From contig CAOSLI010000001.1 of assembly GCA_948524275.1 (NCBI GenBank), positions 329,198-393,197 of the forward strand: a stretch of DNA of 64,000 bases. The letters run 5' to 3'. Made by a program: the position numbers and the translations under genes. Source of the stretch: an uncultured Clostridia bacterium (lineage in GTDB: Bacteria; Bacillota; Clostridia; TANB77; CAG-508). The notes under the pieces were generated by a model. The model did not search any database and was not told where the DNA came from. It saw only the letters and a program-made list of their open reading frames with translations. Below, in pieces: positions 2,368 to 42,792 of this stretch (position 1 is the first letter of the stretch; every line of letters begins with the position of its first letter).

Positions 2368-2765
2368 TGAAAGAAATTGATAAAATCGCACTACTATATG
2401 TAAAAGATGGACAAATATTAAGCACATTATCTAAAGGAAAAGATACGTATTATATACCAGGAGGCAAGAGAGAACTACATGAAACAGATCAGCAAACTTT
2501 AATTAGAGAGTGTAAAGAAGAATTAACTATTGATATTAAAGAAGATACTATAAAATATTATGGAACATTTAAAGCACAGGCACATGGAAAAGCAGAAGGA
2601 ATAATAGTTAAAATGACTTGCTATATGGCTGAATTTATAGGAGAAATAAAAGCAAATTCAGAAATTCAAGAAATAAGGTGGCTAAATTATAGCAATATAG
2701 ATATAATATCACCAGTAGATAAACTTATATTTAAAGATTTATATGAAAAGGGAATTTTAAAATAA
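2367..2765 (+). CDS. NUDIX hydrolase
   Basis: Nudix box GGKRELHETDQQTLIRECKEELTI (GX5EX7REUXEEXGU); start overlaps previous stop (ATGA). Confidence 0.8.
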   Translation: MKEIDKIALLYVKDGQILSTLSKGKDTYYIPGGKRELHETDQQTLIRECKEELTIDIKEDTIKYYGTFKAQAHGKAEGIIVKMTCYMAEFIGEIKANSEIQEIRWLNYSNIDIISPVDKLIFKDLYEKGILK

Positions 2766-2785
2766 GGTAGGACGGAGAAAATAAT

Positions 2786-3253
2786 ATGGAAATAGATGGT
2801 GACATGAAGTATTCTTTTAGAAATTGCACATTAGATGATTTTGACTTTTTATTTCAACTTAAAAAACAAAATTTTAAAAAGTATGTAGACAAGTTTTGGC
2901 AGTGGGATGATGAAGAGCAAAAGCAGAGATTGAGAAAAGATTTAGAAGAGCATTTACCTCATAAAAAAATTATTGTAGTGAACAATAAAATGATTGGAGT
3001 ATATGCAGTACATATAACAGAAGATGGTGATTTATATATAAATGAAATTAGCATTTTAAAGGAATATCAAAACAAGGGTATAGGAAGAAAAATTCTAGAA
3101 AAGCAATTAGAGGAAAATGATAAAAAGAAAATGAGAACTGTATTACAAGTATTTAAAGGAAATTCAGCAAAGAATTTATATGAAAAACTCGGATTTAAAG
3201 TATATGGTGAGACCGAATCACATTATCAAATGGAAAAAGTAATAAAGGAATAG
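2786..3253 (+). CDS. GNAT family N-acetyltransferase
   Basis: 155 aa; acetyl-CoA binding-like QNKGIGRKILEK motif, typical GNAT size. Confidence 0.65.
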   Translation: MEIDGDMKYSFRNCTLDDFDFLFQLKKQNFKKYVDKFWQWDDEEQKQRLRKDLEEHLPHKKIIVVNNKMIGVYAVHITEDGDLYINEISILKEYQNKGIGRKILEKQLEENDKKKMRTVLQVFKGNSAKNLYEKLGFKVYGETESHYQMEKVIKE

Positions 3254-3258
3254 AAGAT

Positions 3259-4071
3259 ATGACATATCATTTTTTATGTAATAAGTTAGTAAAAGAATAT
3301 GAAAATAGTAAAAGTATTGATAATACAATTAAAAAATATATAGAAAACAATTATGAAATTTTAAATGAAATCTATTTTAAACCAAAGAAAATAGATAATG
3401 ATAAAATTGAAGATATTGTAACATGCAATAAATATATAGAAATGATATTAAATACAATTACAAATTTAAAAGATATAAATTTGAATAATATGTTTGAAAA
3501 AATAGTAAGAGAGTTAGGAAACTTACTAGAATATAAAATTATTGATAGAGAGATATATGTTATTATTGGATTAAATACAACAACTATATACACGACAAAA
3601 TACCAAGATAAAGATATAACTGTTATATTACTAGAATCAACATTAGGAATAGAAGAAAATATTAAAATGCTACTTGCACATGAATATACGCATTGGGTTA
3701 GAGAAAAAGAAATTAAAGGTGATATATTTGAAAGTTGTGTTGGAGAAAGACTAATAACAGAGGGTATTGCGTGTAGTTTTTCAGAAGAAATAGTTCCTGA
3801 AAAACCAATAGATTATTATTGTATTGTACCAAATGAAACAGTAAAATGGGTTGAGGATAATATTTATTTGTTAGATAATATGCTAAAAAATCACTTAGAG
3901 AAAAAGGATATGATTTATGACCTATTTTACATGTTTGCAAAAACAACAATACCTAATATGCCAGTAAGAACAGGATATGTTTATGGGTATCTAAAAGTAA
4001 AAGAGTATATGAAAAATAATAATTTGAAAATAAAAGATATTGTTAAAATAGACTGGAGAATGATAATATGA
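3259..4071 (+). CDS. Hypothetical protein with HExxH motif (DUF2268-like putative zinc-dependent peptidase)
   Basis: 270 aa; LLAHEYTHWVRE (HExxH) with downstream E; overlaps next gene by 4 nt. Confidence 0.45.
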   Translation: MTYHFLCNKLVKEYENSKSIDNTIKKYIENNYEILNEIYFKPKKIDNDKIEDIVTCNKYIEMILNTITNLKDINLNNMFEKIVRELGNLLEYKIIDREIYVIIGLNTTTIYTTKYQDKDITVILLESTLGIEENIKMLLAHEYTHWVREKEIKGDIFESCVGERLITEGIACSFSEEIVPEKPIDYYCIVPNETVKWVEDNIYLLDNMLKNHLEKKDMIYDLFYMFAKTTIPNMPVRTGYVYGYLKVKEYMKNNNLKIKDIVKIDWRMII

Positions 4072-4748
4072 TAGATGAAATAAAGAAACAAGTAAATGAG
4101 TTGTTGATGAATGATAATTCAGGACATGGAATGGAACATATAAATAGAGTTTTAGAATTATCATTAAGATTTGCTAAAGTAGAAAATGCAAATAAAGATA
4201 TTGTTGCTTTAATTGCATTACTTCATGATGTAGATGATTACAAATTGTTTGGAATGGACTATGCAGAAAATTTGACAAATGCTAAGAAAATTATGAATAA
4301 TTGTAATATAGAGAAAAGTATGCAGGAACAAGTATGCTTAGCTCTTAAGAATATAGGATATAGTAAAAGGTTAAAAGGATGTTGCCCTACAACTATTGAG
4401 GGAAAAGTTGTATCTGATGCAGATATGTGCGATGCTTTAGGTGTTAATGGTATCTTAAGAGTATATACATATAGCATGAAAAATGGCAAACCATTCTTTG
4501 ATAAAAATATTTTTCCAATAGAGAATATATCTGCTGATAATTATACAAGAAAATGTGCAGATAGTAGTGTTTGTCATATATTTGAAAAGATTTTAAAACT
4601 GAAAGATTTAATGCTTACTGCTTCTGGTAAGGAAGAGGCAATGGATAGACATAAAATTGTTGTTGATATCTTATATCACTTATTTGCAGAAGAAAATGTA
4701 CCAGAGTGGACTGAATATTTAGATAATTACTTAAAAAGAAAATATTGA
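4068..4748 (+). CDS. HD domain phosphohydrolase
   Basis: MEHINRVLELS...LIALLHDVDDYKLF (H...HD motif). Confidence 0.7.
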   Translation: MIDEIKKQVNELLMNDNSGHGMEHINRVLELSLRFAKVENANKDIVALIALLHDVDDYKLFGMDYAENLTNAKKIMNNCNIEKSMQEQVCLALKNIGYSKRLKGCCPTTIEGKVVSDADMCDALGVNGILRVYTYSMKNGKPFFDKNIFPIENISADNYTRKCADSSVCHIFEKILKLKDLMLTASGKEEAMDRHKIVVDILYHLFAEENVPEWTEYLDNYLKRKY

Positions 4749-9203: not shown

Positions 9204-9279
9204 TGGAGCCTATAACGGGAATCAAACCCGTGACCTCATCCTTACCAAGGATGCACTCTATCGACTGAGCTATATAGGC
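9204..9279 (-). tRNA. tRNA-Thr (anticodon GGU)
   Basis: Reverse complement folds as a cloverleaf: acceptor GCCTATA/TATAGGC, D-stem GCTC/GAGT, anticodon stem CATCC/GGATG with loop TTGGTAA, T-stem ACGGG/CCCGT, 3' CCA encoded. Confidence 0.9.
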
Positions 9280-18799: not shown

Positions 18800-18805
18800 A
18801 AAATT

Positions 18806-19168
18806 TAGTAAATCAAATGGTCGCGCTATTTCAATGCCGAAAGGCGAAAAGTGAGGAAAGTCCGGGCCCCATAGAGCAGGATGCTTGATAACGTCAAGTG
18901 AGGGTAACCTTAAGGAAAGTGCAACAGAAAATAACCGCCGTGAATGAAATTAATTTCAGGCACGGTAAGGGTGAAAAGGCGAGGTAAGAGCTCACCGTAG
19001 ATGTAGTGATACATCTAGCCGTGTAAACCCCATCTGGAGCAACACCGAGACTAGGAGAAATAAAGTGGCTGCTCGTCATCTCCTTAAATTGGTGGCAAAG
19101 AGTCATATAGCAATATATGTCCAAGATAAATGACCATTCTTCGACAGAACCCGGCTTACAGATTTACT
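18806..19168 (+). ncRNA. rnpB: RNase P RNA (bacterial type B)
   Basis: P1 pairing AGTAAATC(18806-18813)/GATTTACT(19161-19168); universally conserved GAGGAAAGTCCGGGC (P4 5' strand) at about 18854; 3' P4 strand ACAGAACCCGGCTTA; T-rich tail; about 363 nt. Confidence 0.8.
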
Positions 19169-19348
19169 ATTTTTTATTGATATCAGTATTTTAATATTAT
19201 GTAAAATGAATTATTTGGATAATAATCTATTACAAAAACAGAATAAGCAAGACTGAAAAGTCACATAATAAAATTAGTACAAATTAAAATGTACTAATTT
19301 TTCATGTGTATTTTTAATACAAAGTAAAATTATAAGGAGGGAATTAAA

Positions 19349-39533: not shown

Positions 39534-40415
39534 ATGAACATGATAATAGATAACATGATTTTAAATAAAGAAAATCAGATAAAAGATATGAAGGTTTATG
39601 CTTTTGTTGGACCTTCAGGAACAGGAAAGAGTTATAGAGCTCAGATGGTTGCTGGAGAATACAATATACAGTATATAATTGATGATGGAATATTAGTTAA
39701 AGATAATGAAATAGTTGCAGGAAGTTCTGCAAAAAAGGCACCGACTAAAATTGAAACTGTTAAAAGAGCTTTATTTATAAATGAAGAACAAAATAGAGAA
39801 ATGACTAAAGCAATTAGAAAATATAAGCCAGAGTCAATACTTATCTTAGGAACATCAGATAATATGGTAAATGAAATCGCTAAGAATTTAAAATTACCAG
39901 ACATAATAAAGATAGTATATATAACAGACGTTGCAACAGATGAAGAAATTGAAAATGCGAAAAGGATGAGAACTGTTGAGGGAAAACATGTTATACCAGT
40001 TCCAACCTTTGAGATAAAGAAGGATTTTTCAGGCTATCTTTTAGACCCACTTCAAATATTTAAAACAAAAGGACAGGGGAATAAGCCATATATTTCAGAA
40101 AAATCAATTATAAGACCAACTTTTAGCTATATTGGCAATTTTACAATATCCGATACTGTATTTAGACAAATCATAGAGTATTTAGCATCTAAGAACGACT
40201 CAATAACAGAAGTATTAAGAGTTAGGATAACAAAAGGAGAAGATGCTCCATTAATATACGTTGAAGTTGAGATTACTTATGGAATAAATATAATGTCAGA
40301 GCTTAAAGATTTTAAGGAAAAATGCATTAAAGAAATAGAAAGACTCACAGCAATGAATGTTAAAAATATTAGAATTATTGCTAAGAAAATTAAATTACCT
40401 AATATTAGTTTATAG
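39534..40415 (+). CDS. Fusion protein: HprK-like P-loop NTPase domain + Asp23/Gls24-family domain
   Basis: AFVGPSGTGKSYRAQMVAGEYNIQYIIDDGILV (Walker A then hydrophobic-DD, as in HprK/P C-domain). C-terminal about 110 aa TVFRQIIEYLASKNDSITEV...EVEITYGINIMSELKDFKEKCIKEIERLTAM resembles Asp23/DUF322. Confidence 0.4.
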   Translation: MNMIIDNMILNKENQIKDMKVYAFVGPSGTGKSYRAQMVAGEYNIQYIIDDGILVKDNEIVAGSSAKKAPTKIETVKRALFINEEQNREMTKAIRKYKPESILILGTSDNMVNEIAKNLKLPDIIKIVYITDVATDEEIENAKRMRTVEGKHVIPVPTFEIKKDFSGYLLDPLQIFKTKGQGNKPYISEKSIIRPTFSYIGNFTISDTVFRQIIEYLASKNDSITEVLRVRITKGEDAPLIYVEVEITYGINIMSELKDFKEKCIKEIERLTAMNVKNIRIIAKKIKLPNISL

Positions 40416-40478
40416 TTTGCGAGACAAGATTTTTCTGAATGCAGAATCCTGGATGCATATAGAACGGAGGAATAGAAC

Positions 40479-41792
40479 ATGTCATTTATTGTAGCAATAG
40501 ATGGACCAGCAGGAACTGGCAAAGGAACTGTTACATCAAATTTAGCAAAACGATTAAATTTAGTATATTTAGATACAGGTGCAATGTATAGAGCAGTCAC
40601 ATTAAAATTTATAAGGGAGAGTATAGAATTAGATAACCTAGAAGATTTATCACCAGAACAAAAGGAGAGAGTAACCAATTTACTAAAAAATATAAAGTTA
40701 GACATGAAAGATAAAAAGATATATTTAGACGGAGAAGATGTAAGCGAAGAAATAAGGCGTGATCCAGTAAACTCTTATGTTTCTCAAGTATCTCACATTG
40801 AAGAAGTTAGAAAATCTATGGTAGATTTACAAAGAAAGATATCAGAAGGAAAAAATGTAATCCTTGAGGGAAGGGATATTGGCACTAATGTATTTCCTAA
40901 TGCAAATGTAAAAATCTATTTAGATGCTTCTGTTGATGAAAGAGTTAAGAGAAGGCTAAAACAAAATGCAGAAAAGGGAATTAAATCGTCTGAAGAAGAA
41001 GTTAGAAAAAATATAGTATTTAGAGACAACAATGATAAAAATGCGAGCATAGCTCCATTAAGACAAGCAGAAGATGCAATATATGTTGATACATCAGACT
41101 TAAGCATAAATGAAGTTCAAAATAAACTTTATAAAATAGTTAAAAATGCAAAGAGGGATAGCAAGTGGATTGAAAAGGGATACATAATGACAAAAGAAAC
41201 TACTTGGAAGAAATTTGAGAGATGGTTTGTAAAAGGTGTTTTGGCTAGTACATATCACATTTGTTTAAGAGTTGAAAAGAAAGGAATGGATAATTTACCT
41301 AAAGATGAGGGATTTATAATTTGTGCTAATCATTTAAATTACTTAGATGCAGCAGGTATTGTTTTATTAAATAAAAGAAAAGTTAGATTTGTTGGAAAAG
41401 ACAATTTATATAGATTTCCTATACTATCTTGGCTTGGACACATGTTTGATATTATACCTATAAAAAGAGGTAAAAATGACATGGCATCAATTAAGATGTG
41501 TTTAAAAGCTCTTAAAAATAATGAGATTATAGGTATTTTCCCAGAGGGTACTAGAAAGGGATTAGAAAAGCAAGAAAAGATAAAGAATGGAGCAGTATTC
41601 TTAGCAGCAAAGGCAAATGCAAAAATTGTACCAGTTGGAATTAAGGGGAACTTTAAACTTTTTTCAAAAGTTAGATTTAACTATGGAAAACCAATTGATA
41701 TAAATAGTTATAAAAATAATGATGATCCAGATTGGCTAGATAAAGCAAGCGATGCTATAATGGATGAAATTGTAAGATTAACAGAAGAATAA
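40479..41792 (+). CDS. cmk: In-frame fusion of cytidylate kinase (Cmk) and 1-acyl-sn-glycerol-3-phosphate acyltransferase (PlsC)
   Basis: Residues 1 to about 222 are Cmk (IAIDGPAGTGKGT, LDTGAMYRAV, EGRDIGTNVFP). Residues 237-437 are a LPLAT acyltransferase (CANHLNYLD = HX4D, FPEGTRK). One continuous 437-codon ORF, with the internal Met 237 codon at 41187. Confidence 0.75.
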   Translation: MSFIVAIDGPAGTGKGTVTSNLAKRLNLVYLDTGAMYRAVTLKFIRESIELDNLEDLSPEQKERVTNLLKNIKLDMKDKKIYLDGEDVSEEIRRDPVNSYVSQVSHIEEVRKSMVDLQRKISEGKNVILEGRDIGTNVFPNANVKIYLDASVDERVKRRLKQNAEKGIKSSEEEVRKNIVFRDNNDKNASIAPLRQAEDAIYVDTSDLSINEVQNKLYKIVKNAKRDSKWIEKGYIMTKETTWKKFERWFVKGVLASTYHICLRVEKKGMDNLPKDEGFIICANHLNYLDAAGIVLLNKRKVRFVGKDNLYRFPILSWLGHMFDIIPIKRGKNDMASIKMCLKALKNNEIIGIFPEGTRKGLEKQEKIKNGAVFLAAKANAKIVPVGIKGNFKLFSKVRFNYGKPIDINSYKNNDDPDWLDKASDAIMDEIVRLTEE

Positions 41793-41922
41793 GAAAAATT
41801 ATGTTGACAAAATACATATAAATAATGTATAATATAAAAGTTAATTACTGGTATGGAAATTTATAGAAAGATAATATTATAAATTCTATTACCAAATAAC
41901 TAATTAAAAGGAATGATAGACA

Positions 41923-42792
41923 ATGAGTGAAGAAAATGTATCTTTTGAACAATTATTAAATGATTCAATGAAAGAAAGTAAAAAATTAGAAAAGATTACT
42001 GAAGGAACAGTAATAAATGTAAATGATAAAGGGGAAGTATTTGTTGACCTTAATTATAAGGCTGATGGAATAATACCTAAGTCAGAATATTCTTTTGATG
42101 TAAATGCAGACCCAAAGAAAGAGTTAAAAGCCGGAGACAAGATAACAGTCCAAGTTCTTAAACTTAACGATGGTGAAGGAAATGTACTTTTATCATATAA
42201 GAAGATAAGAAATGCTGAAAATAAAAAGAAACAAGAAGAAAATATGACGAAATTTTGGGAAAAAGCAGAAGTAGGAAATAAATATGAAGGTACTGTTTCA
42301 AGCATATGTTCATATGGGGCATTTATTGATATTGATGGTGTGCAAGGTCTTTTACATATCTCAGAGATTTCTTGGAATAGAGATGCGAAAGTAGGAGATA
42401 TTTTAAAAGAAGGTCAAAAAATCAATATTACAATTAAGGAACTTGATAAAGAAAATAAGAGGATGAAACTTTCATATGATGAAAAAGGAGAAGATCCTTG
42501 GAATACCTTAGAGGTTAAAGTAGGAGATATTGTGAAAGTTACTATAAAGAAAATGATGCCTTTTGGAGCATTTGCTGAGATCAAAGAAGGTATAGAAGGT
42601 TTAATACATATATCTCAAATTTCAACTGCAAGAATTACGAAACCAGAAGATGTTTTGTCTGTCGGAGAAGAAGTAAATGCTAAAATTATAGATATGGATA
42701 TAGAAAACAAAAAAATAGAATTATCAATTAGAGAATTAGAAGGAACTTCTGACGAATATAGTAGTCAAGATAATGATAAGATTGAACAATAA
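41923..42792 (+). CDS. S1 RNA-binding domain protein (short ribosomal protein S1 homologue, 3 S1 repeats)
   Basis: 289 aa; repeated G..V.G.V....FGAF(I/A).I..G(V/I).GL.HISE(I/Q)S S1 motifs. Confidence 0.7.
   Translation: MSEENVSFEQLLNDSMKESKKLEKITEGTVINVNDKGEVFVDLNYKADGIIPKSEYSFDVNADPKKELKAGDKITVQVLKLNDGEGNVLLSYKKIRNAENKKKQEENMTKFWEKAEVGNKYEGTVSSICSYGAFIDIDGVQGLLHISEISWNRDAKVGDILKEGQKINITIKELDKENKRMKLSYDEKGEDPWNTLEVKVGDIVKVTIKKMMPFGAFAEIKEGIEGLIHISQISTARITKPEDVLSVGEEVNAKIIDMDIENKKIELSIRELEGTSDEYSSQDNDKIEQ

Follow-up and report, generated by a model that had tools for sequence, protein, structure and literature searches.

An in-frame fusion of cytidylate kinase and a PlsC-type acyltransferase in an uncultured Clostridia bacterium

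Does an open reading frame (ORF) that encodes a cytidylate kinase (Cmk) and runs on without interruption into a PlsC-type acyltransferase represent a true two-domain gene, or two adjacent genes whose boundary has been lost by accident or error? The question is raised by the cmk::plsC ORF at 40479..41792 (+) of a 64,000-nucleotide stretch, referred to below as the window, from an uncultured Clostridia bacterium (GCA_948524275.1, contig CAOSLI010000001.1, positions 329,198 to 393,197). A first-pass annotation had described a single 437-codon ORF here with a complete Cmk domain and a complete LPLAT domain, and this description holds. The frame runs for 437 codons to a TAA with no in-frame stop, the identical protein is found on 7 contigs, and the motifs quoted in that annotation are where it placed them: the P-loop GPAGTGKGT at residues 9–17, CANHLNYLD at 282–290 (H285..D290), FPEGTRK at 354–360 and Met237 at the ATG beginning at 41187. 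This is a genuine in-frame Cmk–PlsC fusion in which both halves are complete.

The open frame is not a chance feature, because the window has a G+C content of 29.4% and the gene's other two frames contain 50 and 55 stops (~0.12 per codon); the chance probability that the 53-codon bridge between the domains would be stop-free is ~0.001. Pfam Cytidylate_kin (PF02224) matches residues 5–222 (E 1.2e-71, 241 bits, profile positions 1–210 of 211) and Pfam Acyltransferase (PF01553) matches residues 264–389 (E 4e-27, profile positions 1–132 of 132), the latter with 95 bits against a gathering cutoff of 23. An AlphaFold2 model computed with 18 homologues as input has a mean predicted local distance difference test score of 83.6 and a predicted template modelling (TM) score of 0.73, and a sequence search of the PDB found no entry covering both halves. 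We consider it likely that the gene is an evolutionarily fixed fusion encoding one ~50 kDa polypeptide, with an N-terminal kinase for cytidine and deoxycytidine monophosphate (CMP and dCMP) and a C-terminal PlsC-type 1-acyl-glycerol-3-phosphate acyltransferase.

Is the kinase half intact? The Cmk domain occupies residues 1–222 (40479..41144, +), as delimited by Pfam, NCBIfam and PDB matches, Foldseek and invariant alignment columns. It scores 221.4 bits against NCBIfam TIGR00017 (cmk), above the cutoff of 135.55, and its sequence matches 1q3t (E 1e-46) as well as 2h92 and 1cke in the PDB. A Foldseek comparison with the PDB returns 3r20, 2h92, 2cmk and 1q3t (E 1e-16 to 1e-18) at target-normalised TM-scores of 0.80–0.84 (0.83 for 3r20), and the inserted β-sheet that binds the nucleoside monophosphate (NMP) is present. 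The substrate and catalytic residues are also in place: P-loop G9–T17, T33 and R38 (DTGAMYR), R111, R132–D133 (GRDIGT), the LID arginines R155, R158 and R159, R182 and D186. All of these are invariant among 18 homologues that are 54–100% identical to the window protein; the E. coli Cmk counterparts (S36, R41, R110, R131, D132, R181 and D185) were numbered from the motif register and the literature.

Position 189 is another matter. Ala189 (codon GCG, 41043..41045, +) stands where E. coli and Yersinia Cmk have R188, as judged from alignments to 1q3t, 2h92 and 3r20 and from a motif census, and it aligns with Arg in the S. pneumoniae, S. aureus and M. smegmatis enzymes. The E. coli R188 side chain contacts the cytosine base, and the Yersinia R188A variant folds yet is inactive (PMC3603445). 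The Cmk of this clade might, then, have ceased to be a standard CMP kinase and acquired an altered nucleotide specificity, or have come to serve the attached acyltransferase as a regulatory or sensor module that binds nucleotides. The distribution of the change lends this idea some substance, with Ser, Ala or Asn at the position in 99 of 107 close-clade proteins, whereas Arg is kept in 121 of 122 distant fused representatives and at nearly all species loci. Set against it, every other substrate or catalytic residue is invariant, the ratio of nonsynonymous to synonymous substitution (dN/dS) for Cmk is roughly 0.08–0.20, and the TIGR00017 score is far over its cutoff. An Arg at this position is not strictly defining for Cmk, since the active T. 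thermophilus enzyme has a Gln (Gln178) there (PMC7259600), and a conserved Lys two residues earlier in the window's clade (Lys187, in D-K-x-[SA]) may compensate for the lost Arg. The unfused relative L002 shares the change, so the loss is a property of the lineage rather than an effect of the fusion, and no other cmk lies within the 64-kb window. The Cmk domain is probably active, and we regard a change of function as improbable.

The identity of the second half is approached through its motifs, its fold and its position. The LPLAT/PlsC core comprises residues 263–437 (41265..41789, +), as delimited by PF01553, alignment with the T. maritima PlsC structure 5kym, Foldseek and invariant columns. 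All four LPLAT motifs, encoded on the plus strand, align residue by residue with 5kym: motif I, H285-X4-D290 (41331–41348); motif II, F323..K329-R330; motif III, FPEGTR, residues 354–359 (41538–41555); and motif IV, IVPV with P385. Among the 18 homologues H285/D290, F323..K329-R330, F354–R359 and P385 are invariant or nearly so, and membership in the LPLAT superfamily is secure. T. maritima PlsC is the sole PDB sequence match of this half (E 6.7e-15 to 3e-14) and its best acyltransferase fold match (5kym_A in Foldseek, E 8e-8, probability 1.0, target-normalised TM-score 0.61). To our knowledge 5kym is the only solved bacterial PlsC structure.

The score against TIGR00530 (AGP_acyltrn), 89.3 bits, is below the cutoff of 102.95, and for this reason the acyl acceptor is assigned from synteny and from the best structural match. 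In C. difficile R20291, cmk (CDR20291_1711) is followed by plsC (1712, 597 nt) and then by ispH (1713); this cmk-adjacent plsC is essential, with 0 transposon insertions and a strong phenotype under CRISPR interference, and is given as orthologous to B. subtilis plsC, and a second annotated plsC, CDR20291_1620, is non-essential (PMC12548448, supplementary file 4). The acyltransferase half of the window protein likewise follows cmk directly and, at ~200 aa, has the size of the essential C. difficile enzyme. Because of this agreement in size and position, and given the similarities above, the fusion partner is most likely the housekeeping lysophosphatidic acid (LPA) acyltransferase. It could instead be an LPLAT-family enzyme with a non-LPA substrate, such as another lysolipid; the low TIGR00530 score would fit, as would the presence of several plsC paralogues in some bacteria, CDR20291_1620 among them (PMC12548448). 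With four of four LPLAT motifs present, T. maritima PlsC the closest protein of known structure by sequence and by acyltransferase fold, and a place directly after cmk, we think such a substrate unlikely.

The two domains meet in a bridge of residues 210–262 (41106..41264, +), defined from AlphaFold2 secondary structure, conservation, dN/dS and hydrophobic moment. The first-pass annotation saw a short basic linker here. The segment is indeed basic, with 9 Lys and Arg against 4 Asp and Glu in residues 223–262, but it is not a plain linker, as the model contains two helices: the last Cmk helix is prolonged to residue 234 (210–234) and, after a loop of GYIMTKE, a second helix spans residues 242–262, the counterpart, when N-termini are compared, of the N-terminal helix in stand-alone PlsC. 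The junction is gap-free in the alignment of 18 homologues, with Y235, T241, K244, K252 and Y259 invariant. In an unfused relative, L025, the N-terminal extension of PlsC is similar to the connecting residues (KPGDSWFAKLQRR in L025, MTKETTWKKFERW in the window protein). The connecting segment consists of the last Cmk helix, extended, and of the stretch that in PlsC forms the N-terminal extension and helix.

The composition of the bridge bears on how the protein might be held at the membrane. It is basic, aromatic and amphipathic, with many Trp, Tyr, Phe, Lys and Arg residues, and the strongest hydrophobic moment of the protein (0.67) is found at residues 209–226. A transmembrane anchor in the bridge was considered and rejected: no 19-residue Kyte-Doolittle window reaches 1.6, and the maximum of 1.48 falls on the catalytic HX4D region. 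A strongly amphipathic helix, an abundance of Trp, Tyr, Phe, Lys and Arg and hydrophobicity below transmembrane grade together suit an interfacial anchor. PMC10146087, in summarising Robertson et al. 2017, describes PlsC as a monotopic membrane protein with an N-terminal hydrophobic/aromatic two-helix anchor. In the window protein helices 210–234 and 242–262 precede the core, and they have no sequence match to residues 1–63 of 5kym.

Could PlsC nevertheless be made mainly as a separate protein of ~24 kDa initiated at Met237, with the fusion a minor product or one of two? The in-frame ATG at 41187..41189 (+) is a candidate start of this kind, and its product would be a complete PlsC, because the PlsC proteins of unfused relatives start at the equivalents of residues 238–246. 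The codon is preceded by AAAAGGGATACATA, in which AAGGGA lies 6 nt before the ATG with a duplex energy of -5.3 kcal/mol. The weak GGGA noted in the first-pass annotation is therefore real; the internal start it was thought to serve fares less well. Met237 is a Met in just 12 of 18 aligned homologues and Thr, Gln or Ile in the others. Its pairing with the anti-Shine-Dalgarno sequence is weaker than that of the gene's own start (-9.5 kcal/mol) and than that of the typical long ORF in the window (median of 31, -6.4 kcal/mol), and 17% of the in-frame positions of the gene pair as well. The GGGA itself derives from conserved Lys-Gly codons, and the bridge ahead of Met237 is conserved as protein. 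A consensus scan of the cmk half found promoter-like sites with 9/12 matches at best, at chance frequency, and an internal plsC promoter was rejected on that ground. With a non-conserved start, weak pairing and no above-chance promoter inside cmk, internal initiation is unsupported, and a largely separate PlsC seems to us a poor prospect.

The start of the fusion gene itself has the Shine-Dalgarno sequence GGAGG (40466..40470, +), 8 nt before the ATG at 40479. A promoter-like TTGAGA-16-TATAAT (11/12) at 40267..40294 (+) is a candidate for the fusion gene by consensus match; it lies inside the 3' end of the upstream gene, in a region where the number of such sites is at chance level.

How far does the fused frame extend beyond this genome? 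The 7 contigs that carry the identical 437-aa protein come from independent samples and assemblers and have the same neighbours. The fused ORF is present in a homologue of 84% identity (GCA_037193845.1) and in one of 71% identity, the latter listed in 199 blocks of the collection. Both keep the neighbours of the window gene, in the order pnp, GT2 glycosyltransferase, PMT_2-like membrane protein, P-loop/Asp23-like protein, cmk::plsC, S1-domain protein, typA, O-methyltransferase, cadherin-like protein and pfk. The best 120 matches in a 90%-identity protein database, which extend to 54% identity, are fused without exception (120/120, 100% coverage). A stop codon shared by relatives at the junction, which the first-pass annotation had named as the observation that would speak against a real fusion, is thus not seen; the frame stays open from 100% to 54% identity. 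Nei-Gojobori dN/dS values, rough because synonymous sites are near saturation, are 0.08–0.20 for Cmk, 0.11–0.16 for the bridge (210–262) and 0.09–0.14 for the PlsC core. These comparisons indicate that the fusion is genuine and is maintained by purifying selection on the bridge. An error of sequencing or assembly, or the recent loss of the stop codon in this strain alone, as an incipient pseudogene or accident, is an a priori possibility in AT-rich genomes, which tend to homopolymer indel errors, and we reject it as exceedingly improbable in view of the 7 contigs, the fused orthologues from 85% down to 54% identity with synteny kept, the selection on the bridge and the fused clusters, at least 132 at 50% identity, described next.

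An exhaustive phmmer search was made over 1.84 billion 50%-identity representatives, and the best 150 matches were assessed. Fused Cmk and acyltransferase domains are present in 132 of these, with a median length of 447 aa; a recognisable P-loop is found in 126 of the fused representatives and HX4D in 128. Three of the 150 reach an identity of at least 47% to the query and the rest are 30–40% identical, so the architecture occurs in many distant lineages. One fused representative is a protein from a metagenome-assembled genome (MAG) of Spirochaetota, with the NCBI name '(d)CMP kinase'. These counts do not bear out the rarity implied by the first-pass annotation. Among gut Clostridia the fusion is common, as well as old and conserved; it is a routine if under-annotated gene fusion and neither an error nor a rarity.

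A scan of GTDB species genomes, seeded with Cmk motifs and therefore a biased sample, yielded at least 80 loci. Among the 80 listed, 10 carry the fusion (Clostridium sp. CAG:780, a Ruminococcus sp. and several Clostridia and Eubacteriales MAGs), 34 have a separate plsC as the next gene after cmk (Oscillospiraceae, Acutalibacteraceae, several Bacillaceae, Sporomusaceae, Cloacimonadota, Elusimicrobia, Planctomycetia and Acidimicrobiales) and 36 have no plsC downstream of cmk (Lachnospiraceae, Erysipelotrichales, Bacteroidota and others). The earlier statement that the two genes are adjacent in most Firmicutes was accordingly too broad for this sample. Clostridium sp. CAG:780, at 50% identity, is the closest named fused relative among the matches listed. 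Three loci, L023 (an Acidimicrobiales MAG, 2660-4642), L026 and L029, have Cmk at the C- or N-terminal end of a stop-to-stop ORF of ~490–730 aa, and this hints at Cmk fusions of other kinds, with a partner upstream or downstream.

The separate pairs suggest how the fusion may have arisen. Their stop and start codons overlap (ATGA, TTGA) or are separated by a gap of 3–15 nt, and many of the pairs lie in one frame. Many unfused relatives, among them L004, L006, L009, L010, L013, L016, L017, L018, L021 and L023, have same-frame cmk and plsC with a single stop codon and 3–15 nt between them. Since such genes share a frame and nearly abut, one point mutation in the stop would fuse them. Stop-codon reassignment or readthrough in the same-frame relatives need not be invoked, as all three stops are used and a proper start lies a few nt downstream.

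In a neighbour-joining (NJ) tree of concatenated Cmk and PlsC sequences, fusions turn up at five or more positions, always beside unfused sisters: the window with L001 and L003; L022; L024; L008 with L014 and L020; and L005 with L012. The linkers of the fused groups are non-homologous, being 90 aa, basic and aromatic in the window group, short in L008/L014/L020, Ser/Lys-rich in L022 and Ala/Pro-rich in L024. Fused lineages scattered among unfused ones, with unrelated linkers, point to repeated and independent stop-loss fusions of a translationally coupled pair. The loss of the cmk stop codon that the first-pass annotation put forward is in keeping with these abutting, often same-frame pairs, and an origin of the window gene by that route is very probable on the comparative evidence.

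What might the fused protein do? CdsA converts cytidine triphosphate (CTP) and phosphatidic acid to cytidine diphosphate (CDP)-diacylglycerol, from which PgsA and PssA then release CMP; Cmk phosphorylates CMP to CDP, from which CTP is regenerated. The fusion, which would have arisen several times, in Clostridia and elsewhere, would provide both enzymes 1:1 from one ORF. Because the helical N-terminal region of the monotopic PlsC serves as its anchor, Cmk, normally a soluble enzyme, would be kept on the cytoplasmic side of the membrane, where it could re-phosphorylate the CMP freed by CDP-alcohol phosphotransferases (PgsA, PssA), and the CDP would return to CTP for CdsA, whose other substrate, phosphatidic acid, PlsC would supply. 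A link of CTP and dCTP to phospholipid synthesis has been noted for Cmk (PMC3603445). The first-pass annotation read the ORF as a Rosetta-stone fusion that ties CMP/CDP supply to phosphatidic acid synthesis. A tie of this kind is plausible, but it would more exactly concern CMP recycling after the CDP-alcohol phosphotransferases than simple CMP/CDP supply. The product is most likely a bifunctional, membrane-associated Cmk–PlsC enzyme, whose two activities, membrane tethering and kinetic benefit we infer.

Several points weigh against this interpretation. The position of Ala189 is occupied by a near-universal Arg in Cmk, and its replacement by Ala inactivates the Yersinia enzyme (PMC3603445); the acyltransferase half falls short of the TIGR00530 cutoff; and the NJ tree that separates the fused groups carries no support values. 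No second cmk or plsC was found within the 64-kb window, which covers part of the genome. Finally, neutral drift would also yield recurrent fusion of abutting same-frame genes, so a selective advantage of coupling is unproven, and the fusion may equally be a tolerated, near-neutral result of gene adjacency. A bolder proposal holds that the fusion is non-neutral: with Cmk pinned to the membrane through the PlsC anchor, CMP would be recycled to CDP locally for the CDP-diacylglycerol cycle, and the clade's loss of the Arg188 equivalent would mark a changed kinase specificity or a cytidine-nucleotide sensor that tunes phosphatidic acid synthesis. We hold this combination to be doubtful.

The surroundings of the gene are as follows. 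Directly upstream, here and in the relatives of 84% and 71% identity, is a gene for a 293-aa protein (39534-40415, +) with an N-terminal P-loop NTPase region (GPSGTGKS) and weak ABC_tran/AAA matches; its C-terminal region is weakly Asp23-like (24.1 bits against a cutoff of 28). Members of the Asp23 family have been connected with functions in the cell envelope and in lipids. Downstream, the next gene (41923-42792, +) encodes a short RpsA-like protein of 289 aa with three S1 domains, which has 355 aa in the relative of 71% identity. A perfect match to the sigma-70 consensus, TTGACA-18 nt-TATAAT (12/12), is located at 41804-41833 (+), 12 nt past the stop of the fusion gene and ~90 nt before the S1-domain gene, which probably has a strong promoter of its own, as judged from this site. 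No terminator-like hairpin was found between the two genes. The order cmk-(plsC)-rpsA is kept in the window, and ispH, next to plsC in C. difficile, is absent at the locus. An Rfam search of the whole window gave gathering-level matches to a bacterial class A RNase P RNA (18805-19174, +, 280 bits) and one tRNA (9207-9279, -), and to nothing else; neither is near the fusion gene.

The clearest consequence of these results concerns annotation. Cmk–PlsC is abundant in sequence databases and is a hitherto uncharacterised bifunctional Cmk fusion. The database names for the fused proteins are '(d)CMP kinase' or 'cytidylate kinase' alone, NCBIfam and the database names yielded no curated model or name for Cmk–PlsC, and searches of the literature for cmk or its product together with plsC or an acyltransferase turned up no account of such a fusion; a search on CMP-kinase and CDP-diacylglycerol recycling likewise found nothing. 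Because the proteins are named as CMP kinases only, an essential plsC function is hidden in annotations and metabolic reconstructions, and many gut Clostridia MAGs would wrongly seem to lack PlsC. A curated model for a 'bifunctional (d)CMP kinase/1-acylglycerol-3-phosphate acyltransferase' would mend this. The recurrence of the fusion also offers comparative evidence for a functional link between cmk and plsC and supports a connection between CMP recycling and the CDP-diacylglycerol cycle. The attachment of a 25-kDa cytosolic kinase implies a cytoplasmic N-terminus for this class of PlsC, one that accommodates a soluble domain of that size, which fits monotopic in-plane anchoring. The clade-specific loss of the Arg188 equivalent is a natural test case for cytosine recognition by Cmk. 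Current understanding is not overturned, and the biological interest is modest, with some annotation value.

How does the fusion compare with known systems? Its N-terminal half resembles stand-alone Cmk proteins (TIGR00017/PF02224; 1Q3T of S. pneumoniae, 2H92 of S. aureus, 1CKE/2CMK of E. coli) over their full length at 36–41% identity, with the same fold (TM ~0.8) and with the P-loop, NMP-site residues and LID arginines kept; unlike them it continues into a C-terminal acyltransferase of ~215 aa and has Ala189 for the R188 equivalent. The C-terminal half shares with stand-alone PlsC proteins from T. maritima and clostridia the HX4D, FPEGTR and other LPLAT motifs, the fold and the position after cmk, and with clostridial PlsC a core of ~200 aa with one N-terminal helix. 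It differs from stand-alone PlsC in that its N-terminus continues from Cmk and that TIGR00530 is under cutoff, and from the T. maritima enzyme in lacking a sequence match to the 63-residue two-helix anchor.

Fusion of Cmk to the product of a neighbouring gene is not in itself new. Curated NCBIfam models exist for PanC/Cmk (NF010004), Cmk/Der (NF007071) and AroA/Cmk (NF008816), which makes cmk a frequent fusion partner. The window protein has a different partner from all three and matches these models through its Cmk part alone, scoring 233, 181 and 179 bits against cutoffs of 524, 953 and 943, respectively. A further comparison is with the unfused, translationally coupled cmk-plsC pairs of Clostridia, Bacilli, Cloacimonadota, Elusimicrobia and others, in which the same genes stand in the same order; what sets the fusion apart from them is that no stop separates the two coding sequences and ~15 conserved connecting residues are read through.

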